A DNA stretch of 64,000 nt from Naegleria gruberi (Eukaryota), in assembly GCA_000004985.1 (NCBI GenBank), contig GG738887.1; one strand, written 5' to 3'. The translations under genes and the position numbers were made by a program. Within the stretch, counting starts at the first letter, position 1; each line of letters starts with the position of its first letter. The notes below the pieces were generated by a model. It did no database searches, was not told the origin of the DNA, and worked only from the letters and a program-made list of their open reading frames with translations. Of this stretch, positions 33,169 through 57,703 are shown piece by piece.

Positions 33169-35052
33169 TCAACAAATAGTACATTTGGAATCATTCTTTT
33201 TGAGGAGGATTTTATCAACAATAGATGTTTCACTTTTTTGGAATGTTTCATCTTGCCAAGAATAGAGCGATTTCTTCTTTTGTCTATTGAACAGATTTCT
33301 GCTCTGTGAATCTTCTTGGGTAATGATCGTAATGTTAGCTGATTCACAATCCAGTTTGAAATTATCGCATATTTCCTTCCCCTTTTCATTTGTCATGATA
33401 ACCATCCAATTTGGTGGTGAATACTTGTTGGGAGAATATGAAAATTCATAAGACTCTCCTTGCAGACCTAACATTTTCTTTTCTTCTGGAAGGTATTTGA
33501 ATAAGAGATTCTCAACCACTGCTTTTGTTTCATTTCCATCGAACGTTTTCAGGTCTATCAGTTTTTCCTTAAATGTTTGAGGGAGAACTACCATTGTCGT
33601 GTTACCATGATGTTTGATTTCACAATTCTTTGCAAAGAACATGATAATATTCTCCTCCAATTGTTGATACACTGTTGAGGGATCATAGATTTGCAATCGT
33701 GCTGAGAATAAGGACAAGTCCACAATACCGAAATAGATGGAAATATTGGCCTTCTTGAGTGAGAAAGCTCTCCTAGGATCGTTTGCTTTAAATCTCTTTC
33801 CAAATAGAATAGTCTTTGAGGAGTTTCTCTGGAGAATTCCTTCATAAATATCAGATAATGAGAATAGATAGCCTCCAACTCTGTAATGTGTCTTTGAAAA
33901 GAAAATTACTTTGGAAATTTCCAATAATGGAAGGGATCGAACAGAGCAAACGGCATGTATGAGAAGTAAATTATACAAGTTCAAGAAGAATGCCAGTTTT
34001 TCCTCCTCAGAATCCTTAATTAAATCTAAATTAACATGATTCAATGAATAGGTCTCCAAAATAAAATGATCCCACATGCTAATGAATTCATCATTCAACT
34101 TTGTAAAATTCAAATCAATAACCTTCTTAGTATCTTGTTGAGCTATGGTGTAAAGCTCTTTCATGGATAAATGTTGTTGAAGGTGTTCCAGAATATTCTT
34201 TACAACTGTTAGTGGATGCTTAGTTTCTAAAAGTTGCAATTTCTTATTCATTTCAATGAGTCTCTGATCATCCTCAGAGGGTTGATTTAGGATAATGACC
34301 TTCTCCTTATTGTTGGCATTCAGTAATCTATTTCTGTGAAATGAATCATCACCCTGAGAAGAGAGAAACAATGCAAAACATTCATAATATAAATTATTTG
34401 TTGTGAATCTCCTGAATGGATCTTCTAAATTTCTTAAAAGTTCCAATTTGAGATCAATAAGTGAATTTCTCAATTGAGAGGCAAACTCTCTAATCATTTC
34501 AATTTGTTCATAATTCTCCAATGCTTGATCAAATTTAGCACTCACCACTTCAACCTGTGATAAAAAATCCAAAACTTTTCCCTTAACTTTTCCAGGTAAA
34601 TTAATTTCATGTTCTGAATTTCTTTCCAAAAATCGTTTCCTAAATTTAATAGCCCTAGAAATCATTTCCCTAGATTCCAAAGTTTTCTGTACACTATAAT
34701 TACTTCCACTTGCACTTCCAGATTGACTCATCGTATCACTATTCCATGAATTTCTAAAAGAATTTGAAAAACTTGCTCTAGAACTCGATCTGTCATACTT
34801 TTTATACAAGATATTCTCAAATGCAGACGAAAGATTCGTATTATAATCATTCAATTCTCCAAATTCATTCGTTTCAATCTTCCAAATCACCTTCTTCTCA
34901 GCATACTGTAAATAATCCAACAATGATTGCAATTCATAATAGCAGAGCAGATTTTCTGTTGTGAAATCCAAGGACATGAATGTTAGAAAATAACTGCTCG
35001 CCAATGGATCACTCAGTACGTGATGTAAATTAATTTGACCACTCTTGGACAT
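33169..35052 (-). CDS. Protein with an N-terminal RGS-like domain and a C-terminal DUF547 domain.
   Basis: 627-aa ORF. The N-terminus HHVLSDPLASSYFLTFMSLDFTTENLLCYYELQ is RGS-like. The C-terminal LAFFLNLYNLLLIHAVC...GGYLFSLSDIYEGILQRN matches the DUF547 'NxYNxLxxHA' core. Convergent with Rab1; stops about 89 bp apart. Confidence 0.6.
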   Translation of the reverse strand: MSKSGQINLHHVLSDPLASSYFLTFMSLDFTTENLLCYYELQSLLDYLQYAEKKVIWKIETNEFGELNDYNTNLSSAFENILYKKYDRSSSRASFSNSFRNSWNSDTMSQSGSASGSNYSVQKTLESREMISRAIKFRKRFLERNSEHEINLPGKVKGKVLDFLSQVEVVSAKFDQALENYEQIEMIREFASQLRNSLIDLKLELLRNLEDPFRRFTTNNLYYECFALFLSSQGDDSFHRNRLLNANNKEKVIILNQPSEDDQRLIEMNKKLQLLETKHPLTVVKNILEHLQQHLSMKELYTIAQQDTKKVIDLNFTKLNDEFISMWDHFILETYSLNHVNLDLIKDSEEEKLAFFLNLYNLLLIHAVCSVRSLPLLEISKVIFFSKTHYRVGGYLFSLSDIYEGILQRNSSKTILFGKRFKANDPRRAFSLKKANISIYFGIVDLSLFSARLQIYDPSTVYQQLEENIIMFFAKNCEIKHHGNTTMVVLPQTFKEKLIDLKTFDGNETKAVVENLLFKYLPEEKKMLGLQGESYEFSYSPNKYSPPNWMVIMTNEKGKEICDNFKLDCESANITIITQEDSQSRNLFNRQKKKSLYSWQDETFQKSETSIVDKILLKKNDSKCTIC

Positions 35053-35315
35053 TTCATCAATTTGATTTTTGAATTCTAATAAATTGATTTTAAGAAATTA
35101 AAATTATTAATTTGAATTATTTAGGAAAAGTACTTTTTATCAAGTCATCGATTTGTTGTTTTTCCTCTTTGAATCCATTGTTGTTTTCAGTTCCGATATT
35201 ACTTTCGGTTTGTTTCATTTTTTTTGAAGATATTAATTTGGTATTATTTCAACCTGTGTCTATGCTTGATAATATATATGGAATATCAGGAGAACACATT
35301 TATCTTGAACAAGAA

Positions 35316-35386
35316 GCGTCGATGGTTTAGTGGTAGAATACGGCGTTGCCATCGCCGTGACCCGGGTTCAATTCCCGGTCGACGCA
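35316..35386 (+). tRNA. tRNA-Gly (anticodon GCC).
   Basis: GCGTCGATGGTTTAGTGGTAGAATACGGCGTTGCCATCGCCGTGACCCGGGTTCAATTCCCGGTCGACGCA. It has a 7-bp acceptor stem, D-loop AGTGGTAGA, anticodon loop TTGCCAT and T-arm GGTTCAATTCC. Confidence 0.85.
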
Positions 35387-35823
35387 TCCAAGAGATATCA
35401 ATTTTTTTAGCTTTTCTACAAAGAGTCAAGCTTTCACTTTTTTACCATATCAACTATACATGCAATACTACAATATACTTAAATTTCTCATCGTCATATT
35501 TCATATTGATAGAGATAATAACCACCGATCCGACCTCGCTGTAGAATCTCTGATGATTATAGAAAATAGTAGGCATATCATATTGCCTCGGTGGTTGCAT
35601 AATACTTGGCAACCAACTGATATGTTTAAACAACAGCAGTAAACTGCTTATTGTACATATATTTCGAACATGATGTCTCATAAGCATTACTCTTTGATTA
35701 ATAGATATTTGTAAATAACTGACGTTTTATGCAGCTACGTTTGATATTTTTCAACTAGGTTCTTGTGAGCTTGTGGATGAACATAACAATCCTAACAAGT
35801 TCATAAGAATCTCATTAAAAAAA

Positions 35824-36669
35824 ATGAAACAACTTCTACTCTGTCAGGACATCTTGTCATTAATTATAATGTTTGATGAGGATCCTTTCGAAATACTGAT
35901 GTCATTCCGATCTGTTTGCAAGACTTGGCACGAATGGACAAATTCACATCATTTATTATTGGATTGTATTATTTCAGTATTACATAAAGGATGGTCAATT
36001 AGAAATGATTCCACAAACGAAACTTTTCAAGTCAATTTATTTAAATTACCATCATATCAAGATGAATATCATCCTGATATTTTCACACATGCTCTCAAGT
36101 ATTATAAATTGGTAAAGAAACACATTGAACAATATACAGAACAATTGGAGCATCCAAATTCAAGTTGTGAATATGTTTATGCACCAACAAGAGTTGAAAA
36201 CAAATTGGCTTTGGAAATGTCAAGTATTCTTACACCATTTTTATTTCTGAAAAAGGCAAGCACTGAATTTGGAAGTTATGATTTTCGATCAAATTTAGCA
36301 ACTGTAGTGATTGCAAATGTTAAGGGAGAGGACAAGTTTGTGAGTTTAAAGATGTTAAATGACAGAGGTCAACCAGGACCATACTCGAATTATACTGTTT
36401 GTGAATTACTTGAATTCGAAACAGATTCTTCCAAGATTCAAAGTAATGACGAGTTGTTAAATGTTTTAATTAATCATTTGGGGACTACAAAATCCTGGAA
36501 TAGGAAAAGAGTTTTGGAGGTGATGGAATTTATTGGATTGGAAGAGGAATTCCTTTCGAATAATGATTGTGTTAATGATTTCATCTATGTGGTAATGTAT
36601 GAACTCATCTTTAAATCTATAGAAATATGGTATACAGAGCAATATCTTTTCAATTGTGGGGATATTTAA
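35824..36669 (+). CDS. Hypothetical protein (no recognisable domain).
   Basis: Long ORF; first ATG at 35824 (MKQLLLCQDILSLII...). No family recognised. Confidence 0.4.
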   Translation: MKQLLLCQDILSLIIMFDEDPFEILMSFRSVCKTWHEWTNSHHLLLDCIISVLHKGWSIRNDSTNETFQVNLFKLPSYQDEYHPDIFTHALKYYKLVKKHIEQYTEQLEHPNSSCEYVYAPTRVENKLALEMSSILTPFLFLKKASTEFGSYDFRSNLATVVIANVKGEDKFVSLKMLNDRGQPGPYSNYTVCELLEFETDSSKIQSNDELLNVLINHLGTTKSWNRKRVLEVMEFIGLEEEFLSNNDCVNDFIYVVMYELIFKSIEIWYTEQYLFNCGDI

Positions 36670-36717
36670 ATATCAAGTCGGTGGTTAATTGAAAATTGTT
36701 AAATTAAGGAAATGAAT

Positions 36718-36835
36718 GGCTACGGCCATATCACGATTCATGCACCTCATCCCGTCCGATTTGAGAAGTTAAGCATCGTCGAGCCACATCAGTACTGAGG
36801 TTGGAGACAACTTGGGAACCTGTGGTGCTGTAGTC
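36718..36835 (+). rRNA. 5S ribosomal RNA gene (dispersed copy 1).
   Basis: GGCTACGGCCATATCACGATTCATGCACCTCATCCCGTCCGATTTGAGAAGTTAAGCATCGTCGAGCCACATCAGTACTGAGGTTGGAGACAACTTGGGAACCTGTGGTGCTGTAGTC. Helix I pairs 5' GGCTACGGC with 3' GCTGTAGTC, and loop C/E motifs are conserved. It is followed by a T-run. Confidence 0.85.
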
Positions 36836-36869
36836 CTCTTTTTCCTTCCTTATGTTTATTAGAGTTTCA

Positions 36870-37366
36870 TCTATTTTAGCCATCATTAAAACAATGAAAG
36901 TGGAAGAGGAGCTGCAATATACCATCATGAAGAGCTACATGCTCTTCCTCCATCTCAATAATTTGATATTAAGGCGAGAGTATTCAATAACTTTCTTGAA
37001 TCCATATTTATTTTTCACATTAAAGATACCACAATTTTATAATTGCACTTTTCACACATTCAAAGCCAATATCACAAACCTCACAAATGAAACTTGATAA
37101 AACCATTGACTGTACTTCTACAGGATCTTTTCTGTAGGAATACATAAACTCGACTTTTTTGAGTCAATCTGACCTTTGAGGTTAACCAAGATGAAGACTC
37201 TGTAGTCACATATCTTGAGCATGATATCGAACTGGAAACATGCTTCGTTGTAGGTTTCCTCGTTCATAGATGATTGCTGCATTCCTTACCAGCCATGGTT
37301 TGTGAATGGGGGATTTGTGAACATGCAGATTGGTACCTTAAACCTTTTATCAATTAATAGAAAATT
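36870..37366. repeat. Interspersed repeat copy A, immediately downstream of 5S copy 1. It is related to 43905..44300 but with the central ~155 bp in opposite orientation.
   Basis: Shared blocks are 'tttcttgaatcc.tatttat...ttttcacacattaaa..taccacaatttt.taattgcacttttcacacattcaaag' and 'gatatcgaac...atgcagattggtacctta...ttttcaattaatagaaaat'. Segment 37073..37227 is the reverse complement of 44079..44229. Confidence 0.75.
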
Positions 37367-37709
37367 ATTACAACCAACCAACCAAATGCCCCCAATAGCA
37401 CTAGTCATAACCATATATTGCAATGAATATCATTCATAAAAATTAAACATTTCTCAATCATCAATTTCACTCTTGGTCGAGCAGTGACTCGTTGCACGCA
37501 AATCATTTAATTTTTGAGATGGCATTTTGTTCTTAGAAACTTGAAACAACAGAATTTTGGAGAAAAAATGAGAGTGTCCAATCTTTGATTATTTTCTTGG
37601 TGGTTTTAAGAGATGAAACTTTGAAAATTGGTAATTAGCTAGAGTACTTATCATTCATCCTATGATGAAAAAAGTAAAACCTATATTCCAGATAGAGTCA
37701 AAAATTAAT

Positions 37710-37780
37710 CTCGAGTGCCGGGAATTGAACCCGGGTCGCCAGAGTGACAGTCTGGAATGCTACCACTATACCACACCCGA
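37710..37780 (-). tRNA. tRNA-Asp (anticodon GUC).
   Basis: Minus-strand TCGGGTGTGGTATAGTGGTAGCATTCCAGACTGTCACTCTGGCGACCCGGGTTCAATTCCCGGCACTCGAG. The anticodon stem-loop is CCAGA-CTGTCAC-TCTGG, with T-arm GGTTCAATTCC. Confidence 0.8.
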
Positions 37781-38319
37781 TTGCATTCAAGTAGAAATGA
37801 TTCCTTAATTCGCCTTAGTATATAGTCATTTCTGCCATTAATTTATTATTAGAAAATTGACTTCCATTTCGAAGTGAAGAGGCTTCTTAAAAAAAGAATT
37901 ATACCATAATGTTGTGAACCCACAAAACAATCTGAAGATAAGAGACATTCCAACCCATAACCGAATTTGAGGCATGTAGTGTAATTCTAACATCACGATC
38001 AGCTCATTACTCTATGAAGTTTTAATCTTTGCATCAAATCTGCTAAATTAACTTTTCAAATTTTAATGAAGAGGTCAGCAAATGTTTTTAAAGTTCCCAA
38101 AATGTTTTCAATGTTCATTTTCAAAATTTCTTATCTATTTTTAAATATAATGACGAAATTTTCATCATCATTACAAAAAGTATGATGTCAACAACTCCGA
38201 AATTCAATGATGAAGACACACGGTTTTCATTCATATAAAACCCATTGAACGATATTCTTGAAAAAAACAAGAATTTGCAAACAAGCAATTCAACTAACAA
38301 TTCTAATAACTCAAACAAA

Positions 38320-38868
38320 ATGGACTTTTTCAAAAAGATTGGTCAATTCTTCTCTGGATGGCTCAGAGGTTTATTCGAAAATAAGGAAGCCAAGATTCTA
38401 TTCCTTGGTTTGGATGCAGCTGGTAAAACTTCAGCTCTATATAAGATTCAATTAGATGAAAATGTTAGCACTATTCCCACCATTGGTTTCAATGCTGAAG
38501 TGTTACAATATAAGAAGGTAACTTTCAGAGTGTTTGATATTGGTGGCCAGGATAAGATTAGAAAGTTATGGAGACACTATTATCAATCGACAAATGCTAT
38601 CATTTTCATTGTCGATTCTAATGATACTGAGAGATTTAAAGAAGCTGCCGAAACCTTACGGGAAGTTATGCAGGATGATTTATTGAAAGATGCCAAGTTA
38701 TTGGTGTGGGCTAATAAGCAAGATTTGCCAAGAGCTGCCAATGTTAAAGATATGGTCAATACTTTGAAATTACACGAGATTAAGCAAGAATGGTACATCC
38801 AACCATGTAGTGCCCTGTCTGGCAATGGATTATTCGAAGGTTTGGATTGGTTATCCAGTAAATTGTAA
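38320..38868 (+). CDS. ARF/ARL-family small GTPase.
   Basis: [13 protein letters not shown]...[18 protein letters not shown]...[20 protein letters not shown]...ANKQDLP...[17 protein letters not shown]. This matches the ARF G1 to G5 motifs. Confidence 0.85.
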
Positions 38869-38921
38869 ATAAACACTTTGATATCTCATATTTCAAACTT
38901 GTCAAATAGGATTTCATCATA

Positions 38922-39875
38922 TTAGCCTCCAACCAATCTAAACACCATGACTAATTTAGAATTACTGTTAATTTCTAATTCTTGCAAAGTTTTTTCATCA
39001 TCTTCCATTGACATCACTTTCGAATTGTGAATTATTCTAAATTCATTACCAATGTTCCACTCCTCAGCCACCCTCCAACGAATCATATTGAAAGTATTGT
39101 TAGGATCTGCAAAAAATCTCAATTCCTTTCCTGAGATTGATTTAATACGCAATTCTATAGAGTTGTCCAATGTGGAAAAGCTTGAAATTTCCTCATCCTT
39201 AAAAAGTACATTTCCAACAAACTGAAAGGCCTTTGGGGTTTGTTTCAGTGCAGCTAAATTAATTTCTCTATTATTCTTCAGTGAATATCCCACATATTCC
39301 AATAATATTCCACACTGGCTTACAATTTTCAACATGTATTCTCTATTATTTAACAAGTATTGATTTAAAACATATTTGATGGCTCTTGGATTACAATCAA
39401 GAGCAGCTCTACAAATTTCCTCATCCTGTCTAAAGTCCTCATCCATATCTTTTAATAGGACCCAATTATTCTTTACCTGAACTAATTCCTTGACAAAATT
39501 TCGATCTCTTCTCAATACCTTTCCAACATATTCACCACTCGCAAAAGCATCATTCGAAATTGCCTTCAAAACTAATTCTCTATCATTCCTCCAATTTTCA
39601 TGAAGAATTTTCAATGCCTTTCCTTTATGTTGCTTGATCACAGCAAGAGCCACCTCTCTATCCAAACTAAAATCGAATGGTTTCAGACTCGGAATGAATG
39701 GAACGTTGCTATGTTTTATCTGGTTTAAAACCATCAATTTTGCATAGTGGTGCTTTAGTACTTGTTGAGATGTCTTCATCATTTCATTCCGAAGTATTTG
39801 TTGTAAATTAGTCATGAATTTATAATTTTCCTGATGGAAATCAGTGAGTGTAATTTTTACTGTTTCGTTCTGCAT
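38922..39875 (-). CDS. Protein with DUF4116-like ~35-aa repeats and a C-terminal ubiquitin-like domain that ends exactly in ...RLVGG-stop.
   Basis: Repeats: ELVLKAISNDAFASGEYVGKVL, EICRAALDCNPRAIKYV, EYMLKIVSQCGILLEYVGYSL, EINLAALKQTPKAFQFVGNVL. C-terminus: IELRIKSISGKELRFFADPNNTFNMIRWRVAEEWNIGNEFRIIHNSKVMSMEDDEKTLQELEINSNSKLVMVFRLVGG. This aligns with ubiquitin (TLTGKTITLEV...[16 protein letters not shown]). Confidence 0.65.
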   Translation of the reverse strand: MQNETVKITLTDFHQENYKFMTNLQQILRNEMMKTSQQVLKHHYAKLMVLNQIKHSNVPFIPSLKPFDFSLDREVALAVIKQHKGKALKILHENWRNDRELVLKAISNDAFASGEYVGKVLRRDRNFVKELVQVKNNWVLLKDMDEDFRQDEEICRAALDCNPRAIKYVLNQYLLNNREYMLKIVSQCGILLEYVGYSLKNNREINLAALKQTPKAFQFVGNVLFKDEEISSFSTLDNSIELRIKSISGKELRFFADPNNTFNMIRWRVAEEWNIGNEFRIIHNSKVMSMEDDEKTLQELEINSNSKLVMVFRLVGG

Positions 39876-40056
39876 ATGATGATCGTGTTTTATGACTTGA
39901 TTTTTTTTGTTTTGTAATTGATTTAAACTTCAAATTCGAAATACAAAACGATCGTAACAGGTAAATTGAAAATTCACAAAATTGGTGTACAATGTGGGAT
40001 TTCGTTTTAAAGGAAGTTGGTGGTTGATTGAAACTTGTTAAATTAAGGAAATGAAT

Positions 40057-40174
40057 GGCTACGGCCATATCACGATTCATGCACCTCATCCCGTCCGATT
40101 TGAGAAGTTAAGCATCGTCGAGCCACATCAGTACTGAGGTTGGAGACAACTTGGGAACCTGTGGTGCTGTAGTC
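40057..40174 (+). rRNA. 5S ribosomal RNA gene (dispersed copy 2).
   Basis: Identical to copy 1 over the 118-nt gene. It is preceded by the same ~40-bp upstream block (ggtgg.t.attgaaa.ttgttaaattaaggaaatgaatg) and followed by TTTTT. Confidence 0.85.
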
Positions 40175-40332
40175 TTTTTCCTTTTACCACATTGAACGTT
40201 AACCTTTCTATTTAGAGACATGTTCATTACAACAATATTCAAATTGATTAATGATGCAAACAACTTACAATTCAATAAATATTTATTAAATGTTGAATAT
40301 TCCCAATGCTAAAGCAATGTGAATAGACACAT

Positions 40333-41820
40333 CTACACAACATTTTCCATGTCAATATTTACTTCATCCATTTGCATTAAATCGAAACTTGCCTTCTCCA
40401 TTTCTTCTTGTGAATCTTCATAGACCTGAACTTCATCCGATTGAAAACCATAAATCTCAACAATTTGCTCATTGAACCATTGTTCATTGAAGAGGACTTT
40501 TGTTGGATAGCCATTCTCCTCAATTACCTTAATCATTTGATGGAAGAGAAACTCCAATTCGTTGTAGTATTGAGCAAAGTCAAGTTCACTAATGTATTCA
40601 TCTTCAAGAATTGACATGCACTTGTCAAACTTTTCACTAATTGACATGTATAATGAATCATTGTCAAAGATGTCATGATAATTTTCTATAGCTTGATGAA
40701 TGGTATGGAGCATGAGTTGTTTGTTACGTTTCAATCCTTCCAAAATGTCCAATGATTCATTAATGCGTTTGAATTTTGAAAAATTATTAGAAATGATGCA
40801 TTTGATGAATTTCTTCTTAATCTTTCTGATTTGTTCGGTAATGAGAGAGTTGTCCAATACTTTGAAATGGCTTTCGGTGCTTTCAATTCTTTTGAAGAGC
40901 ACATCTTCATAGCAATCAACTTTGATAGATCTGTTACTGGAGAGAAGGGTTCCAAAATTATCCTCTTTTTGAATGGTTTCGAATAGGATTTTTGTATTTG
41001 ATGGAAAGAAAAAGGATAAAGCAAGCTTGAGTGCACCATATTTGGATGGTTGTGTGGAGATGGAATGATTAACAATGATTCTCTTCAATGAACACACAAT
41101 TTCTGGTTCCTTCAAATCTTCCTTGGACAATGATTGCAAGAATGTTTCTGGAATAATCAATTCTTCACAATTAGGATAACACTTCCCCAATAAATCATTC
41201 AAGAAGGATCTCAATTCATTACATGAACCGATAGTATTACGAAGGATCAATTTCCTGACCTTTTCACTTGAATGATTCAATATGTTTTCTTGACTTGGAT
41301 GTGAAACACACAGAGTTGGAATTGTGATGGATCTGTGAGGAAACTTGTGACTTTCATAATATTCAAGATTGGGAGCAATGGTGGAAATATCATAATTCTT
41401 TGGAGGTCTAATAAATAATAATCGAGTCAACTTGCTACCTAAATGTGAAATAAGTGACAAATCACTATTGTTGTAAATTATATTTGAGAATGATAATTCC
41501 TCAATATTGGAAGAAATCAAATCAAGATTATTGACAAGTGCAAATATTGGGTTATCAACTCCCTTAGGTTTCCCTTCATTTGTTAAGTTTCTAATGAATG
41601 ACCATTCAAGGTCAAATGTCAACTTTTTCAAATAAGGACTAATTTTAAAAATTCTTTTTGAGAATCGAGATTCTGGGTAGATGAGCTGAAAGTTTTTGAA
41701 CTTTAAATGTTGGATCTTACTGGTACTTGCGTTCATCAAGTCAACCAATTGTCTCTTTGTAATTGAAATTCCATTTAAGGTATTGTAGTTTTCCAGAAAC
41801 CATGACATAAATTTTTTCAC
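40333..41820 (-). CDS. Hypothetical protein (495 aa), possibly LRR/F-box-like.
   Basis: Long uninterrupted ORF on the minus strand. No clear family recognised. Confidence 0.45.
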   Translation of the reverse strand: MKKFMSWFLENYNTLNGISITKRQLVDLMNASTSKIQHLKFKNFQLIYPESRFSKRIFKISPYLKKLTFDLEWSFIRNLTNEGKPKGVDNPIFALVNNLDLISSNIEELSFSNIIYNNSDLSLISHLGSKLTRLLFIRPPKNYDISTIAPNLEYYESHKFPHRSITIPTLCVSHPSQENILNHSSEKVRKLILRNTIGSCNELRSFLNDLLGKCYPNCEELIIPETFLQSLSKEDLKEPEIVCSLKRIIVNHSISTQPSKYGALKLALSFFFPSNTKILFETIQKEDNFGTLLSSNRSIKVDCYEDVLFKRIESTESHFKVLDNSLITEQIRKIKKKFIKCIISNNFSKFKRINESLDILEGLKRNKQLMLHTIHQAIENYHDIFDNDSLYMSISEKFDKCMSILEDEYISELDFAQYYNELEFLFHQMIKVIEENGYPTKVLFNEQWFNEQIVEIYGFQSDEVQVYEDSQEEMEKASFDLMQMDEVNIDMENVV

Positions 41821-41859
41821 CTCAACACCAATCTTTTTTCCATCTCATCCATGTTGATC

Positions 41860-42915
41860 GATTAAAATCCATCTATTCAATCTGTTTTTTGATCAATCTA
41901 TCAAACAATCGATCATGATTAATCAACAATTTCAATCATATTGAATAAAGACTTGATGTTATTTGAAAAGGCTCAACCTTCAGCTAATTATCAAAAGATG
42001 TTGTTTGATTTCTTATGATGTTTCAAAAAAAAGAACTTAAAACACAAAAAGTTGGTTTTCTAAGTGCTTAAAATCATGTTAGAAGCCAATCTCCTCCGAT
42101 GTGGCATTTGAATATAAATTTCTTATAATCCTTTCTGAGCTCAGTGACAGAAGGTTGCTCCCAACCTTTTTCCACGAATATGTCAAGTGCTCACTCTTGA
42201 TTTTAATTTGGGATGTGGATATTGCAATATTACATAAGAGTGTTGGTTCTTGATTAAATGATTGCTTACACAAGTTTGGACGTTGTTGCTCCTGAACATG
42301 TGGTTTTGTTCAAAGAGCATTTTATCAAGTTTGCTTTCATTCTCACCCTTTGTCATTAATTAAGGCACTCAATACTGGAAACCTTTTTTCAAGTGTTGTA
42401 TTTTATCATGTCAAGTACTTGAGAAACTCATTTGATGTAGTAGAAGATCCACATTGTAAAGAAATTAAAACATTCAAACTTAATGAATCGTTCCGATGCC
42501 ATCCCAGCTTGATATGGAATTCAGTAATACCAATAAGGTGATTTTCAAGGCACTCTGTACTGACATCTAACCAAGGGTTGATTTAAAATGAAAAAAGGAG
42601 CAATTTGGAGAAGCCATTTCGAAGCTTAGTGAAATAAGTAAGGGAGAATGAAATCTGTGACTCTAAAAAAATAATTGAAAAACCAAAAAACAACTCTCAA
42701 AAAGTCAAAAAGGCAAGAAAAAAATCAAACCTGAACTGGAAGAACAAAAGAAATCATCAAAATCAAAGTCTCAAGCTCAGTTCAATGAGGATTTCGAGAT
42801 ATCTGATGAAAACATTGATAGATCGATCGATTGATCGATCAATTAATTGATAAAATTCTATGTTTCATCCATTCAATCGATCATTTTCCATCTCGATCAA
42901 TCATCGATGGGTAAA
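41860..42915. promoter_or_regulatory. Intergenic region containing two clusters of ATCGAT/GATCGATC palindromic motifs (41860-41930 and 42820-42915).
   Basis: 'tgatcgattaaaatcc...caatcgatcatgattaatca' and 'gatagatcgatcgattgatcgatcaattaattga...caatcgatcattttccatctcgatcaatcatcgatggg...ccatcgaaaa'. Confidence 0.3.
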
Positions 42916-42938
42916 AAAAATCCATCGAAAAATTTATG

Positions 42939-43463
42939 TCATGGTTTCTCGAAAACTACAATAACTGTACTAAACTTTTCAATTGTGGACATGAATTTAA
43001 GTGAATATTCTGAAAATCTCACAACAAGTTCAGTGTCATGAATAAATGGTTCATTTTCCAACCAATCATGTAAAAATTCTAATTGACTATTATTGTTACA
43101 ACACCAAACTCTTCTGTGCATGAGAATTTGCAAGCAAGCTTCTCTATTTACCAAATCAGGAAAATTAATCAAATACTTCATCAATTCAGCAAGGAATTCC
43201 TCATCACTATAGTTTGACATGATTTCCAGCACAATATCTGCACATCCTAATGTACTTTCCAATAGCTGTTTCATTTTCAATTTGTCCATTGCTTGTTTCA
43301 TTTGTTGTTGAATTCCCTTCTTGTTGCCACGTGCGATGGTTGCAGCTACATTCAGATCGGTTGCAAATCTTGCCCATCCGTCTGGATCCATCAGCATGGC
43401 AGAGGGTGGAATGGCAATTCTTGGTTTCCTTGATGACTTTTTTGATATTTTGGCAGGCAGCAT
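42939..43463 (-). CDS. Hypothetical protein (174 aa).
   Basis: Minus-strand ORF starting MLPAKISKKSSRKPRIAIPPSAMLMDPDGWARF... No family recognised. Confidence 0.4.
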   Translation of the reverse strand: MLPAKISKKSSRKPRIAIPPSAMLMDPDGWARFATDLNVAATIARGNKKGIQQQMKQAMDKLKMKQLLESTLGCADIVLEIMSNYSDEEFLAELMKYLINFPDLVNREACLQILMHRRVWCCNNNSQLEFLHDWLENEPFIHDTELVVRFSEYSLKFMSTIEKFSTVIVVFEKP

Positions 43464-43904
43464 GTTTCTAATAATGTTTCTAATAATTGTTGTTGGTTTC
43501 TTTTTCTTTTAACTGAAGGCAAATAGTTGTGTTTGCGAATTTAAAGTTGTTTTAATCACGTTGTGAATTCCGATCTGGGCAAAAATGGACTAAATCATGT
43601 TTTGTGTGTGGAAACGAAAGATTTTGTTTGCTTTGACAAGGTTCAATGTTTTCTTGTGACACCTGGAAGTGGCACTCTGAAGTTTACGTAAATTGATTGA
43701 TTTTGTTTGAAACAGTGGTTATGATGATGCAACTTCATGTTCTTTTTCCATAAACACCAATTAGAAAACTTTTGAGAAAATAGGAATTGAAAAAAGGGAA
43801 GTTTGCCTCCAACTTACTTTGTCAAGACAAAAATTTACAACAGTTCTGGATTATTTGCTCAAATACAAGTGGATATAAATACCGAGTTGAAGGAAATTCT
43901 TAAA

Positions 43905-44300
43905 AACCATGGTATTACGATCTTGAAGAAGAGCCATCATGGAACTATTGAAAATGCTCTTTCCACCTCAATGATTTAATGAAAATAACATTCAATTATT
44001 TTCTTGAATCCTATTTATATATTTTTCACACATTAAATGTACCACAATTTTCTAATTGCACTTTTCACACATTCAAAGATATTATGCTCAAGATATGTGA
44101 CTACAGAGTCTTCATCTTGGTTAACCTCAAAGGTCAGATTGACTCAAAAAAGTCGAGTTTATGTATTCCTACAGAAAAGATCCTGTAGAAGTACAGTCAA
44201 TGGTTTTATCAAGTTTCATTTGTGAGGTTAGAGAAATTGGCTTTGATATCGAACATGCAGATTGGTACCTTATACTTTTTTCAATTAATAGAAAATAAAA
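43905..44300. repeat. Interspersed repeat copy B (inverted-core variant of 36870..37366).
   Basis: See copy A. The central block 44079..44229 is the reverse complement of 37073..37227. Confidence 0.75.
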
Positions 44301-45175
44301 TTAACTAGAGAAACGATCAAACCTTTCCTTATACCAATTCACAATTCTGTAGATTGTGTATTAATCAGGTTTCACAATTCTAATGATCATCAAGCACTAT
44401 AACAAAATTCATTGCACTATATTGAATTACATTAATACTTGCCAGGTAAGGTTGTTGGTAAATCAAGTTCAATGCAATACAATATTTGAAGACTCAAATT
44501 CGAAATTTGAAGGTTTATTGATCAACCACAAGTTTCTCTTTCTAAATAGATAAAATTCAAAGGTGATAAATATATGGTCACGTTGCAAGTTTTTCTAAAC
44601 AATAACTTACTGAACCAACAATCAATAGATTAGTTGCCTTCACTGTTCATACAGTCAAAGACTGTAGCGGGATAGTCGCCATATTCCTGGCAGGCTTCCC
44701 GTCCAAAATTAACAATTGAAATAATTTCTCAGACAATTTATGAATTGGAAAGAAATTGAAATCACTAGAGGTTTATTGTAAACTGCACACACCAAAAATA
44801 TGAAAAATTTTTGTTGACTGAAAAAAGTTCAACGCTGCGCAAGATGTTAAAAGACAGAAATAGTGGTATACGAAATTGATTATCTGCGCTCAACCGGCCA
44901 ACATGGATGAGATCCAGGGTTTATGAGGGGATTTTCAAGTGTCAAAGCGACCCGTGGGTGTTTGTCTGTTTCAATTTACTACCTTTATTACTGAGAGGAA
45001 AGAATGAGGAGTAATACAGCAAAATTCAAAGTTTCGAAACAATTGCCGTATTCAATACTTTGTTTGTGGTAAGGTATCATTTTCAATCCATTATGAATTT
45101 GTCCAACATTGTTAATTGCCCATTCGGGTTAAAGACAGATTGGCTGTTTATCATTAGACTTTTAAGGTAATTGAT

Positions 45176-45293
45176 GGCTACGGCCATATCACGATGAATA
45201 CACCTCATCCCGTCCGATTTGAGAAGTTAAGCATCGTCGAGCCACATCAGTACTGAGGTTGGAGACAACTTGGGAACCTGTGGTGCTGTAGTC
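45176..45293 (+). rRNA. 5S ribosomal RNA gene (dispersed copy 3, variant).
   Basis: Same as copies 1 and 2 except 'cacgatgaatacacctc' replaces 'cacgattcatgcacctc'. It has a T-run terminator. Its upstream block is less conserved. Confidence 0.8.
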
Positions 45294-45490
45294 TTTTTCA
45301 TTCTTCTATTTTATTAAGCGTTTCATAATTATTACTATTTCAATTCCAAATGTTTTATTTTGAAAGTATTATTGGGTCTATATTTTTTTTGTGGAAACCA
45401 TAAAACTAAACCTTAGTATCTACAATACTGAATAGTAAATATTTGTTCCTTGTTCAATCCTTCTCATATTGAGGTAAACAGACAAAAAAA

Positions 45491-46459
45491 ATGAAACATG
45501 GCTTTCTTACATGCAACCTAGCACTTATTATCGATGAAACCGATAATGATGAACCAAAAAATCCGATTTTAAAGGAAATGGCTGAAGATAAGGGATTGCA
45601 CTTTAGTGTGGAGTGTCTGGATGGTTCTGCTATTCTTCATGTACAGCTAGTAACAAGGAAGAGAGAAGAGAATTACATTTGCACCTTAATTTACGAATAT
45701 TTGTTATCTGTTTTGGTGTTCGATTGGGTGAAAGGAATTAAAATTGCTTCTCTTTCTTTTTCAAAACATGAACCAAAAGAATGTGCTAAATTTCCTTCAG
45801 TTAGAAAGAGTTATGAAAAAGAAAAATGTTGCACTGTTGATGATCATTCGCTTTCGGATAATGGAAAATCTGGTAGTGTTGCTTCAACTGAAGAAACTCC
45901 TTGTGACGAGTCTAAGGGTGGTATTGCTGTTAATGGCCTTATTTCAAGTGAAGAAAATAATCTTAATGAAGAGTTTGAGTATTTCTCCGCAGAGGATGAT
46001 TTTAGTTCCAAACTTCAACGAGTCAAACCAATATTCGACTCCAAAATAATGAAGGAGAACATCTATTTTGCACTACTTTATTACAAGCCACCAGAGAGCA
46101 CTGATTCACACATTTCCACAGAATCCTGTGTTTCGAATAGATCTCCTAATACCAATTGTACAGAATTCTCTACTACTGAGCAACAAAGTGTTAACAATTC
46201 AACATCCCCAACAAGAATGTTATCTTCACATAATCTCTCCTCTGCATCAACTTCAAGTAGTGGTGGCAACTATGCTCCAACAAAGGGACAGAATGTTCTC
46301 CAACGTTCAAAGGCCATTCTCTCAGATGTTACCAATTTTAATTATTTTGACAAGTTCAAGAATGCTGTATATGAGGGAAAGAGTAAGGCACAAACATCTA
46401 GTGGCTCTACTACAAGTAAGAAAGTGGGAGGTAGTACTAAGAAGGGAAGAAAACATTGA
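45491..46459 (+). CDS. Hypothetical Ser-rich protein (322 aa).
   Basis: ORF from ATG at 45491. No recognisable domain. Confidence 0.4.
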   Translation: MKHGFLTCNLALIIDETDNDEPKNPILKEMAEDKGLHFSVECLDGSAILHVQLVTRKREENYICTLIYEYLLSVLVFDWVKGIKIASLSFSKHEPKECAKFPSVRKSYEKEKCCTVDDHSLSDNGKSGSVASTEETPCDESKGGIAVNGLISSEENNLNEEFEYFSAEDDFSSKLQRVKPIFDSKIMKENIYFALLYYKPPESTDSHISTESCVSNRSPNTNCTEFSTTEQQSVNNSTSPTRMLSSHNLSSASTSSSGGNYAPTKGQNVLQRSKAILSDVTNFNYFDKFKNAVYEGKSKAQTSSGSTTSKKVGGSTKKGRKH

Positions 46460-46588
46460 ATAAATATGTGTCAACGTTTTAATGCAAGCTCAATAGAATA
46501 TGGCTCAATTGCAACATGTTGAATGTAATGATCAAATATTGGGCTTGAGTTTACAATAGATTATCTGTTCCGAAGTAGCAAGTTCGAA

Positions 46589-47854
46589 ATGCATCAATAC
46601 AACAAACAAAAAAACCGAATGAAACGATCCTTTGATGATTGTGCTTCGGAGGTACCACCAACATCACAACCATCACAGCATTATGATTCTGATGGAAGGT
46701 TGATGATGATGACTTCATCTCTACCCAATCATAATCACAATAACAACAATAATAATAATAGTAATAGTAATTTTAATAGTAGTGCATTGATGGATAATGA
46801 TCATCATACAACATTGATAGAAACTACTCCGATGAGTAACAATGACAATTATATGATTGATAATAATAATAACAATATGAAGAAAATTAAGAAGAATTCA
46901 TCACTGTCCTATTTTCATAATTTTAATGGTCATCATAATAGTCAGTATCAAACAACATCAACATTGATAACTATGAATGGTTGTTCGGGAATGAAAACAA
47001 GCCAGTCAGAGTTTGAATTGATTGGATGCATTGGAAGTTATGGTTCTCAGAATGGTCAATTCAAGAATCCATCTGATGTGGCTATTGATTTCAAAAATCA
47101 ATTAATATTTGTTGTGGATACAGATAATAGACGTATTCAGGTTTTTGATGAGTCAACTCTGACATTCAAGTACATGTTTACGACACCATTCAAACCAAAT
47201 GCAGTGACAGTTCATTGGGATCACACTTTAATTATTAGTTTCACTCGAGATTCATTGATTTGTAAATATGATTTTAATGGAAATGAGATATGGAGATGGG
47301 GAGGAGTTACAACAAAGAATGTAATGGATTCTCCAACAGGTGTTGTGGTTGACTATGAGGGAAATATCTATGTTTGTGATTGGTTTAAACATAGAATTGT
47401 AGTTTTTTCTCCAGGTGGTGAATTACTGAAATCGATAGGATCTATGGGAAAGGAATATGGTCAATTCTCATTCCCAAGAGATATTGACATTGACAGTGCT
47501 GGGAATATCATTATTTCTGACAGTGGAAATAATCGCATACAGATACTGAAATCTAATGGAGAATTTATAAGTAGTTTTGGAAGTATTGGAAATGATAAGG
47601 GAGAATTTCAAGCACCAAACTCTGTTTTTGTGGACAAGTCAACTGGTGATATATTTCTTACAGAGTGGGATTCACATAGAATTTCAAAATTTCATCCTAG
47701 CAATCCCTTTTCTGGTTCTACTTGCATTGGTAGCTTTGGAAACCATGAAAATTCACTGAAATATCCTTCTGGAATTGCATTCTGCTACGGGTCATCTCGT
47801 TTGTTTATTGTTGATACTGGAAATAATAGAATCAAGGTTTACAGAGTTACATGA
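46589..47854 (+). CDS. NHL-repeat beta-propeller protein with an N-terminal Asn-rich low-complexity region.
   Basis: Repeats: GSQNGQFKNPSDVAIDFKNQLIFVVDTDNRRIQVFD, GKEYGQFSFPRDIDIDSAGNIIISDSGNNRIQIL, GNDKGEFQAPNSVFVDKSTGDIFLTEWDSHRISKF, GNHENSLKYPSGIAFCYGSSRLFIVDTGNNRIKVY. Confidence 0.7.
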   Translation: MHQYNKQKNRMKRSFDDCASEVPPTSQPSQHYDSDGRLMMMTSSLPNHNHNNNNNNNSNSNFNSSALMDNDHHTTLIETTPMSNNDNYMIDNNNNNMKKIKKNSSLSYFHNFNGHHNSQYQTTSTLITMNGCSGMKTSQSEFELIGCIGSYGSQNGQFKNPSDVAIDFKNQLIFVVDTDNRRIQVFDESTLTFKYMFTTPFKPNAVTVHWDHTLIISFTRDSLICKYDFNGNEIWRWGGVTTKNVMDSPTGVVVDYEGNIYVCDWFKHRIVVFSPGGELLKSIGSMGKEYGQFSFPRDIDIDSAGNIIISDSGNNRIQILKSNGEFISSFGSIGNDKGEFQAPNSVFVDKSTGDIFLTEWDSHRISKFHPSNPFSGSTCIGSFGNHENSLKYPSGIAFCYGSSRLFIVDTGNNRIKVYRVT

Positions 47855-56419: not shown

Positions 56420-57703
56420 TTAATAAACTTGGAGTCCTCTCTCTTCGAAGAAATCTAAAATTGATGCCACACTTGTGCATTCTGAAAACTCTATAACATC
56501 TGCAGATAAAAATTGATGGTGAGAATAGAGCATAAACATAATATGATGTTGTAAAATATGGAACGGAACTCCTCCTATTTGAATAGCTATTTGTAAATAT
56601 CTTTGAATACACTCAAAAGGTACATAATCATATCCACTGAATAATGCTGGATTAGATAATAATCCACGAGCACTCATTACACCATCACATCCTGTCTCTT
56701 TAGCAAAACGATCTGAATCTCCCAAAGTAAAAATATCACCATTATGCATTACTGGTACGTTTAGGATTTGTTTGATTGTTTTAGGTCCATCTGGATTGAC
56801 TTTGGTATTCTTTGTTCTTTGTTTATGTGTTCTTCCGTGTACAGTAACCCAAGATGCTCCAGCCATTTCAATTTGTCTTGCAAGCTCTATTGTTTTTCTA
56901 AATTCAAGTGTATCATCCTCAGGATGCAATCTTATTTTCACACCAATTGGTCTACTCATTCCAGAAATGAATTTGTTATTGGCCTCATGAACCATATCAA
57001 AAATCTTTTGAGGTTTAGTCACCAAAGCAGCTCCCAAACTTTCTTTCATCACATAAGGTTGTGGGCATCCACAATTCAAATCAATTCCATCACAATAAGG
57101 TGCTGCCAATTGACAAGCTAAACTAAAATCAGTAGGATTATTAGCAGCAAATTGAACCACAAGAGGGCTATCATAATAATGTGTTGTAAAATCCGAATCC
57201 CTGGCTTTTTGTGATTTATGAAAACAATCCGACATTATCATTGGTGTATAAACAACATCACATCCATACTCTCTACACAACAATCGAAAGGCTAATTTAC
57301 TATAACGAACCATTGGTGCTTGTACTTTTAAATAGGTTCCCTTCTCCTTAGCCTCCTTGAACATATTCATCAACGAATGTCGTGGTTTTAATTCATCAAT
57401 ACTAAAGCCTTCCGGTAAATTTTCTCCAACTCTTAATATATTATTATTAATATTATTATTATTATTATTACTATCATCATCATTTAAATTATTCTTATTA
57501 ATAAAAGTATAGTTATTATTAAAATTGGTTGGAAGATGAACACAATTAGTTTCATTAACTAATGATGAAGGTCCTTCGGAATAATCAAAATCGTTTCTGT
57601 CTAATTGGAAAGCACCCAAATCGATGCGGAGGGCGTTATTATGACAGAATTGTGTCTCGGAAATGAATGAATTTTCGTCATCCTGTGTTGGTTGTTGAAG
57701 CAT
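56420..57703 (-). CDS. tRNA-dihydrouridine synthase (Dus family) with an N-terminal Asn-rich region.
   Basis: LKVQAPMVRYSKLAFRLLCREYGCDVVYTPMIMSD...PLVVQFAANNP...IDLNCGCPQ...VKIRL...ASWVTVHGRT. These are FMN-binding TIM-barrel Dus motifs. Confidence 0.85.
   Translation of the reverse strand: MLQQPTQDDENSFISETQFCHNNALRIDLGAFQLDRNDFDYSEGPSSLVNETNCVHLPTNFNNNYTFINKNNLNDDDSNNNNNNINNNILRVGENLPEGFSIDELKPRHSLMNMFKEAKEKGTYLKVQAPMVRYSKLAFRLLCREYGCDVVYTPMIMSDCFHKSQKARDSDFTTHYYDSPLVVQFAANNPTDFSLACQLAAPYCDGIDLNCGCPQPYVMKESLGAALVTKPQKIFDMVHEANNKFISGMSRPIGVKIRLHPEDDTLEFRKTIELARQIEMAGASWVTVHGRTHKQRTKNTKVNPDGPKTIKQILNVPVMHNGDIFTLGDSDRFAKETGCDGVMSARGLLSNPALFSGYDYVPFECIQRYLQIAIQIGGVPFHILQHHIMFMLYSHHQFLSADVIEFSECTSVASILDFFEERGLQVY

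Follow-up and report, generated by a model that had tools for sequence, protein, structure and literature searches.

Three 5S rRNA genes scattered among protein-coding genes of Naegleria gruberi, probable members of a dispersed chromosomal family

We analyzed a stretch of 64,000 nucleotides of the Naegleria gruberi genome (assembly GCA_000004985.1, contig GG738887.1; this whole stretch is called the window below), in which three 5S ribosomal RNA (rRNA) genes stand on the same strand among protein-coding genes, in the company of two transfer RNA (tRNA) genes and a U3 small nucleolar RNA (snoRNA) gene. The locus is very probably an ordinary piece of a chromosomal, dispersed 5S multigene family, composed of autonomous RNA polymerase III (Pol III) units with an upstream AT-rich stretch and shaped locally by duplication or conversion at the DNA level. 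The 18S-5.8S-28S ribosomal DNA (rDNA) of this amoeboflagellate is found on an extrachromosomal plasmid. Each 5S gene would be a self-sufficient unit of about 170 bp, placed in a short spacer between protein-coding genes and built from a type-1 internal control region (box A at +50 and a box C-like element at +80), a T-run terminator and the AT-rich stretch at -45..-1. This stretch most likely aids the placement of TFIIIB and TBP, in the manner of the upstream TATA-like boxes known elsewhere from dispersed 5S genes. Duplication at the DNA level or gene conversion would have brought about the local cluster of three, in which copies 1 and 2 appear to be recent twins with a derived helix II/loop B variant and copy 3 would be nearer to the canonical form. 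The two tRNA genes would be neighbors at roughly background density, and a U3 gene and a broken second copy of it are found in the same region.

We scanned the whole window against Rfam with cmscan at gathering thresholds (38 for the 5S rRNA family, RF00001) and assigned tRNA types with ARAGORN. A first-pass annotation, made from the sequence, had reported three complete 5S genes on the plus strand, and the scan recovered all of them at the same positions, each over the full model and at 100.3-106 bits:

36718-36836, plus strand: 5S rRNA gene, copy 1 (RF00001, 100.4 bits, model 1-120, one non-canonical pair flagged; U21, C22 and G25, with C at nucleotide 119)
40057-40175, plus strand: 5S rRNA gene, copy 2 (RF00001, 100.3 bits, model 1-120; U21, C22 and G25 as in copy 1)
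45176-45294, plus strand: 5S rRNA gene, copy 3 (RF00001, 106 bits, model 1-120, no pair flagged; G21, A22 and A25)

All three copies adopt the three-domain fold in RNAfold, with helix I, helices II-III with loops B and C, and helices IV-V with loops D and E. Their internal control regions are identical, with box A matching the consensus exactly at +50 and box C carrying two mismatches at +80, and a T5 run directly follows the 3' end of each copy. The nucleotides that vary between the copies fall outside box A, box C and the terminator in every case. With an internal control region and a T-run, the three copies appear to be type 1 Pol III genes; none of them bears a mark of a pseudogene. The identity of copies 1 and 2 reported in the first-pass annotation holds over the mature RNA as delimited by Feng et al. 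(PMC3369914), but not over the Rfam span, where nucleotide 119 is C in one and T in the other. The genes are 3339 and 5119 nt apart, and the spacers are unrelated to each other and contain open reading frames (ORFs). According to the ORF list, copy 2 is located in a spacer of 457 nt, with one minus-strand ORF on either side.

The three genes are not new. Feng et al. (2012, PLoS One 7:e36878; PMC3369914) searched the Joint Genome Institute (JGI) assembly with BLASTn and listed 279 putative 5S genes in their Table S1. Because the spacings of 3339 and 5119 nt match those of three entries on scaffold_43, namely R32243 (scaffold_43:164721-164832, copy 1), R33363 (scaffold_43:168060-168176, copy 2) and R33361 (scaffold_43:173179-173295, copy 3, in the highest similarity class), the window corresponds to scaffold_43:128004-192003, and all three genes are ordinary family members already catalogued in that survey (PMC3369914). 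We parsed the coordinates of Table S1, which derive from a Sanger draft assembly, to obtain the dispersal statistics. The 279 entries, 264 of which are at least 110 nt long, are spread over 117 scaffolds, and the gaps between entries on the same scaffold (n=162) have a median of 34 kb, the smallest being 462 nt and the largest 413 kb. When entries are linked at 10 kb, they fall into 200 singletons, 32 pairs and 5 triples, and the locus in the window is one of the five triples; the next 5S gene follows 8.6 kb beyond the end of the window. Gaps of 10 kb or less number 42, compared with about 11 expected under a Poisson model, and three 5S genes within 8.6 kb are also far above Poisson expectation (at a density of 0.068 per 10 kb, about 0.2 such windows are expected genome-wide). 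There is thus genuine but modest clustering, of the kind that local duplication would produce.

As the first-pass annotation had proposed, these 5S genes are dispersed rather than tandem, both among the protein-coding genes of the window and genome-wide in Table S1. We found no head-to-tail array of constant repeat length: the two spacings in the window differ, and no size recurs among the 162 gaps of Table S1. The same annotation had also considered the case that these might be the only copies, with a canonical tandem array present elsewhere; what Table S1 holds is 279 entries and no periodic array. Table 1 of the same paper nevertheless gives "tandem arrangement: Y" for N. gruberi, with no array shown (PMC3369914), a label that the irregular spacing and the lack of any recurring gap in Table S1 do not support. 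If the label were right, the functional 5S genes could reside in an array elsewhere, and the three copies could be pseudogenes or in decay. Draft assemblies can collapse arrays, and copies 1 and 2 have lost one helix II pair at a cost of +4 kcal/mol, as would suit such copies. Against this stand the absence of periodic spacing anywhere in Table S1, the scores of 100-106 bits against a threshold of 38, and the intact box A, box C and terminators. Furthermore, 161 of the 279 entries have one and the same similarity value, as would be the case in a family whose members are kept close to a single sequence. We consider it very unlikely that the copies in the window are remnants beside a hidden array.

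The sequence differences between the copies point in the same way as the scores, namely away from decay of copy 3. Nucleotides 17-29 read CGAUUCAUGCACC in copies 1 and 2 and CGAUGAAUACACC in copy 3. This amounts to three substitutions, at nucleotides 21, 22 and 25 (UCAUG in copies 1 and 2, GAAUA in copy 3), rather than the 6-nt variant ascribed to copy 3 in the first-pass annotation. In the Rfam alignment, nucleotide 21 closes helix II, nucleotides 22-24 constitute loop B and nucleotide 25 opens helix III. G21 of copy 3 pairs with C, whereas U21 of copies 1 and 2 is flagged as non-canonical, with the loss of one G-C pair of helix II; at nucleotide 25, copy 3 has an A25-U pair and copies 1 and 2 a G25-U pair. 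Folding copy 3 had been suggested as a check for compensatory change. The changes are not compensatory, because the U21 of copies 1 and 2 costs helix II a pair while A25-U and G25-U are both standard pairs. Single-sequence folding gave -37.2 kcal/mol for copy 1 and -41.2 kcal/mol for copy 3 (z -3.1 for copy 3), with the overall fold unchanged. It is copies 1 and 2, not copy 3, that deviate from the canonical structure, and copy 3 is the most canonical of the three. The idea that copy 3 belongs to a variant class or is decaying has to be abandoned, given its top Rfam score, its most stable fold and the retention of all its helices. Since copies 1 and 2 have the derived U21/C22 variant in common, they are probably recent twins.

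A further 5S gene closely related to these came from a metagenome scan with a 27-nt 5S pattern, which returned 13 contigs; one of them (L010) is Naegleria-like, and the other 12 have a clearly different 5S. The 5S gene of L010 equals copy 3 except for GAAAG at nucleotides 21-25, so that it has G21 and A22 in common with copy 3 and G25 in common with copies 1 and 2. The stretch of nucleotides 21-25 thus appears to be a variable spot among Naegleria 5S genes. By the similarity values of Table S1, copy 3 belongs to the class nearest the reference query, which has 13 entries (0.758), copy 2 to a class of 27 entries (0.7333) and the majority of entries (161/279) to a class at 0.75, where one value need not equal one sequence.

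The similarity between the copies extends upstream of the genes, over the following blocks:

36675-36717, plus strand: upstream block of copy 1 (about -43..-1; from the direct-repeat family, alignment and identity statistics)
40014-40056, plus strand: upstream block of copy 2 (3 of 43 positions differ from the block of copy 1)
45133-45175, plus strand: upstream block of copy 3 (diverged; still in register with copies 1 and 2 at TTAAGGTAAT, -14..-5, and at AT, -2/-1)

The block of copy 1 begins right past the stop codon of a 298-aa ORF (35773-36669) and contains TTGAAAA at -29..-23 and AATTAAGGAAAT at -16..-5. Over -45..-1, copies 1 and 2 are identical in register at 40/45 positions, which bears out the common block described in the first-pass annotation. 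The block of copy 3 is diverged, again as described there; its identity to copy 1 (21/45) is still above the null of 12.9 +/- 3.2 positions that we obtained with random 45-mers from the window. For copy 1 and L010, the identity is 23/45, which corresponds to the 99.9th percentile of this null, and L010 has nothing in common with the window apart from the 5S gene and this upstream similarity. A hand count over the three independent lineages gave 12 invariant columns out of 45, where composition would give about 4. The positions in common comprise TTGAAA near -29..-24, T at -14, A at -12 and AT at -2/-1.

The repeat unit of copies 1 and 2 has sharp edges. It spans 166 nt (36675-36840 and 40014-40179) at 97% identity, and neither alignment nor the repeat search detected similarity between the two copies past about -45 upstream or beyond the T-run. 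These edges bear on the duplicative (retro)transposition that the first-pass annotation had considered. Small autonomous 5S units distributed over 117 scaffolds with unrelated flanks could indeed have been spread by RNA-mediated retroposition, or could be 5S derivatives akin to short interspersed elements (SINEs). However, the 40/45 positions that copies 1 and 2 share are upstream of the transcription start. Pol III transcripts would not contain this region, so that an RNA copy could not have transferred it, and retroposition is disfavored. The similarity ends at the T-run without an A-rich tail or a tail like those of long interspersed elements (LINEs), and all three copies are full length with intact internal promoters, unlike a 5S-derived SINE or retropseudogene. 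No target-site duplication or flanking direct repeat was evident by eye, without a dedicated scan. Retroposition is therefore unsupported as the mode of spreading, and we regard it, together with a SINE-like origin, as extremely improbable; duplication or gene conversion at the DNA level would be the more natural source of the local cluster.

Whether the upstream block has a role in transcription is a separate matter. Upstream elements are required for the transcription of the dispersed 5S genes of Neurospora crassa, Schizosaccharomyces pombe and Arabidopsis. TFIIIA diverges fast, and its absence from a BLAST search does not establish its loss. In N. gruberi, the 5S genes have an internal control region and an upstream TATA box according to Feng et al., who found TFIIIB and TFIIIC but no TFIIIA homologue by BLAST (PMC3369914). 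The upstream promoter or positioning element put forward in the first-pass annotation is plausible in view of the in-register similarity above the null in copy 3 and L010 and of the TATA box of Feng et al., which is not proof. The evidence for a short, position-specific AT-rich element is modest, and we take it as a first hint.

We also followed the core of the block within the window. The 10-mer AATTAAGGAA is present at -16..-7 of 5S copy 1 (36702-36711, plus strand) and copy 2 (40041-40050, plus strand) and at -30..-21 of the tRNA-Asp gene described below (37801-37810, minus strand). It has five further exact copies in the window, none of them near small-RNA genes, and the link that it draws between the two 5S genes and tRNA-Asp is only suggestive. 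It is possible, though rather unlikely, that the upstream block has no function, being left in copies 1 and 2 by descent or by conversion spill-over and matched in copy 3 and L010 by composition. Such an origin would agree with the derived internal variant that marks copies 1 and 2 as recent twins, with the similarity of copy 3 being strongest nearest the gene, as spill-over predicts, and with the five occurrences of AATTAAGGAA away from Pol III genes. It is harder to reconcile with the identity of the unrelated L010 at the 99.9th percentile, with the excess of invariant columns in the hand count (12/45 against about 4) and with the known need for upstream elements in N. crassa, S. pombe and Arabidopsis. 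At the other end, 5S transcription in N. gruberi may run mainly via the external element at -45..-1, with TFIIIA undetected and the core AATTAAGGAA also present 5' of at least one tRNA gene. In that case, maintenance and not drift would account for the U21/C22 and G21 classes, as subfamilies that are expressed differently, for instance in the amoeba and in the flagellate. We regard this stronger version as improbable.

Several points weigh against an autonomous dispersed family whose members use an upstream element. Transcription of the three 5S copies, and of each variant, is inferred from the sequence. The promoter role is drawn from three independent sequences in an AT-rich genome, and gene-conversion tracts spilling into the flanks would yield the same upstream pattern. 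The AT-rich core AATTAAGG of copies 1 and 2 is found at -16..-9, nearer to the start than the classical TATA position of -25 to -30. As to dispersal, Table 1 of Feng et al. marks the N. gruberi 5S genes as tandem, and the Sanger draft could have collapsed or omitted a tandem array. With these points counted, we still hold the dispersed family of autonomous units to be very probable.

The other small-RNA genes of the locus are the following:

35316-35386, plus strand: tRNA-Gly(GCC) gene (Rfam tRNA, 66.9 bits; ARAGORN)
37106-37334, plus strand: U3 snoRNA gene, U3-1 (RF00012, 76.7 bits against a gathering threshold of 34, model 1-219)
37710-37780, minus strand: tRNA-Asp(GUC) gene (Rfam tRNA, 57.1 bits; ARAGORN)
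43990-44296, no single strand: U3-2, a rearranged U3 copy (repeat search D2-D5 and I1; mismatch counts and junctions)

Both tRNA genes had been annotated correctly in type and position, as Rfam and ARAGORN agree. The tRNA-Gly gene has its own T7 run 16 nt downstream, and its nearest 5S gene (copy 1) is 1.3 kb away with the 298-aa ORF in between. The tRNA-Asp gene has a T5 run 6 nt downstream and is convergent with U3-1, 376 nt downstream of the latter. The N. gruberi genome measures about 41 Mb. It contains 924 tRNA genes (PMC2888827). The background is accordingly 0.23 tRNA genes per 10 kb, at which two in 10 kb are mildly unusual (P ~0.02).

The U3-1 gene was overlooked in the first reading of the sequence. 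It begins 270 nt 3' of 5S copy 1, and 10 nt past its own 3' end there is a T4 run. The 5' domain and the box C'/B/C/D regions align to the Rfam model. Its box C' is GAUGAAGA and its box D is CAGA, and in the Rfam alignment the position of the kink-turn that is usually U.U is A.A. The second copy, U3-2, is situated 880 nt 5' of 5S copy 3, has a T6 run after it, and is not intact on one strand. On both sides it is flanked by sequence repeated in direct orientation from the U3-1 locus (36982-37059 and 37319-37365; 11 differences in 121 nt), and between these flanks a segment of 169 nt, from -46 to U3 nucleotide 123, is inverted (44078-44246; 165/169 identical). In addition, 90 nt of the 3' half of U3 have been deleted between two GAAC tetranucleotides, which are microhomologies, and the junctions of the inversion are TCAAAG and the palindrome GATATC. 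As a result, U3 is split between the strands, with its 5' 123 nt on the minus and its 3' 16 nt on the plus strand, and Rfam gives only a sub-threshold match of 24 bits on the minus strand. All the U3-coding bases that U3-2 retains are identical to those of U3-1, while the non-coding parts differ by about 8%. The copy may stem from a very recent break of a constrained gene, its coding parts may have been homogenized by gene conversion, or the inversion may be an error of the assembly. The two U3 loci are homologous upstream to about -190, and the unit that was duplicated (about -190 to +260) contains no 5S gene. Between U3-1 and tRNA-Asp, at 37531-37694 on the plus strand, there are sub-threshold C/D-box matches (snoR130, 23 bits; snR40, 20 bits) with an AUGAUGA box at about 37652; no convincing box D or terminal stem was seen there. 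A permissive Rfam scan of 34000-47000 revealed no further credible RNA genes.

The first-pass annotation had called this locus a Pol III gene island. The small-RNA genes are indeed present, but the term overstates the case: the tRNA genes are about as dense as in the background, and U3 may or may not be a Pol III gene here. One could go further and see a functional Pol III domain in the locus, with its 5S, tRNA and U3 genes brought together so as to be regulated jointly or to share a position in the nucleus, and with U3, too, transcribed by Pol III. Six or seven small-RNA genes within 10 kb would fit a domain of this kind, as would the proximity of each U3 copy to a 5S gene (270 nt 3' of copy 1 and 880 nt 5' of copy 3), the T4 and T6 runs after U3-1 and U3-2, the presence of AATTAAGGAA 5' of two 5S genes and tRNA-Asp, and the transcription of U3 by Pol III in plants and trypanosomatids. 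However, the tRNA density is near the genome average, the U3 duplication unit lacks a 5S gene, T4 runs are common in a genome of 33% GC, and no divergent tRNA gene is found about 100 nt 5' of U3, unlike in trypanosomatids. Five loci from N. fowleri, N. lovaniensis and Willaertia, each with an orthologue of a window gene, moreover, lack small-RNA genes as well as the neighbors seen in the window. Such a domain appears distinctly unlikely, and the tRNA and U3 genes are better regarded as neighbors of dispersed 5S units.

These five loci (104 kb in total) were taken around the orthologues of the dihydrouridine synthase (Dus) and of the Arf-family GTPase encoded in the window, from N. fowleri, N. 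lovaniensis and Willaertia magna (Dus only for the last). They contain no Rfam-detectable RNA genes and do not have the gene neighbors of the window in common, and nothing suggests that the island is conserved across the loci of these relatives. The Dus protein (56420-57703, 11 kb from 5S copy 3) is 100% identical to a predicted N. gruberi protein at NCBI from a contig of 508 kb, and its next-best matches are from N. fowleri (75%), N. lovaniensis (72%) and Willaertia magna (63%). The Arf-family GTPase (38320-38865, plus strand) is encoded inside the island, and its best match is a 99% (not 100%) identical N. gruberi protein from a different contig of 310 kb, which suggests a near-identical paralogue or an allelic scaffold elsewhere in the assembly.

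Eleven of the metagenome contigs (L006-L009 and L011-L017, with accessions VFQM.../VFQO...) belong to another organism. Each has one 5S gene, with the loop C region as in Naegleria; one of these genes is 5'-truncated at nucleotide 7 and one is cut by the end of the contig. Paired changes occur in their helix II (GCGUAG/CUGCGC, GUGUAG/CUGCAC, GCAUAG/CUGUGC and GCUGAG/CUCAGC), and these genes look like dispersed functional variants with compensatory substitutions. The Naegleria-specific 5S pattern had no match in prokaryotic genome contigs or viral contigs. A homologue search with the DUF547 protein also gave no match, with low-complexity words probably swamping the query. In the window at large, G+C is 31-38% in most 2-kb bins, with one bin at 26.5%, and the ORFs are long and mostly intron-poor, with Asn-rich tracts and domains including DUF4116, LRR_6, Sel1 and NHL repeats. 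A 39-nt inverted repeat (41778-41816 and 42928-42966, 95% complementary) flanks a 1.1-kb spacer between two minus-strand ORFs.

Upstream TATA-like elements contribute to the transcription of dispersed 5S genes in S. pombe, N. crassa and Yarrowia lipolytica. The 5S genes of N. gruberi resemble those of the three fungi in being solitary among Pol II genes, unlinked to the large rDNA, surrounded by unrelated flanks and variable within the genome. They differ in that the large rDNA of N. gruberi is carried on a plasmid and not in chromosomal arrays. The higher copy number of 279 and the failure of Feng et al. to detect a TFIIIA homologue are further differences; dispersed 5S copies number about 30 in S. 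pombe and 108 in Y. lipolytica (PMC2566860). The dicistronic tRNA-5S genes of Y. lipolytica (Acker et al. 2008, PMC2566860) offer another likeness, in that TFIIIA-free 5S expression is conceivable and tRNA-Gly(GCC) is located 5' of copy 1 on the same strand. In contrast to the dicistronic genes, tRNA-Gly in the window has its T7 terminator and is separated from the 5S gene by 1.3 kb and the 298-aa ORF, and no tRNA gene occurs within 1.3 kb 5' of any 5S copy.

Trypanosomatids are distant relatives of Naegleria within the discobids. Their U3, U6 and 7SL genes are reportedly linked to tRNA genes, as Nakaar et al. are said to have described in 1994, and plant U3 is reportedly transcribed by Pol III, a finding ascribed to Kiss et al. 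in 1991. The N. gruberi U3 gene resembles both in that it adjoins Pol III genes, here in a discobid protist, and has a T-run after it. It differs from the trypanosomatid arrangement in that the nearest tRNA gene to U3-1 is convergent and 376 nt downstream, with a 5S gene in the same orientation 270 nt upstream. No tRNA gene is present on either strand within 1.7 kb 5' of U3-1, where a trypanosomatid-type gene would have a divergent tRNA with A and B boxes about 95-105 nt upstream.

The locus has little import beyond annotation: its 5S genes are in a published table, and fungi and protists offer well-documented cases of scattered 5S genes with short upstream elements. The catalogue of Feng et al. 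(PMC3369914) already includes the same three genes at the same spacings and reports the internal control region and a TATA box; it does not include the sequence variants, the 45-nt upstream block, the neighboring U3 and tRNA genes or the spacing statistics. What our analysis adds is, first, that the published table fails to support the "tandem" label of its own paper. Second, Naegleria 5S copies are not uniform at the junction of helix II and loop B, where the less stable form is found in two of the three copies here. Finally, there is a hint of a position-specific upstream element, and a U3 gene is accompanied by an internally inverted twin, which may reflect a recent rearrangement or an assembly error.

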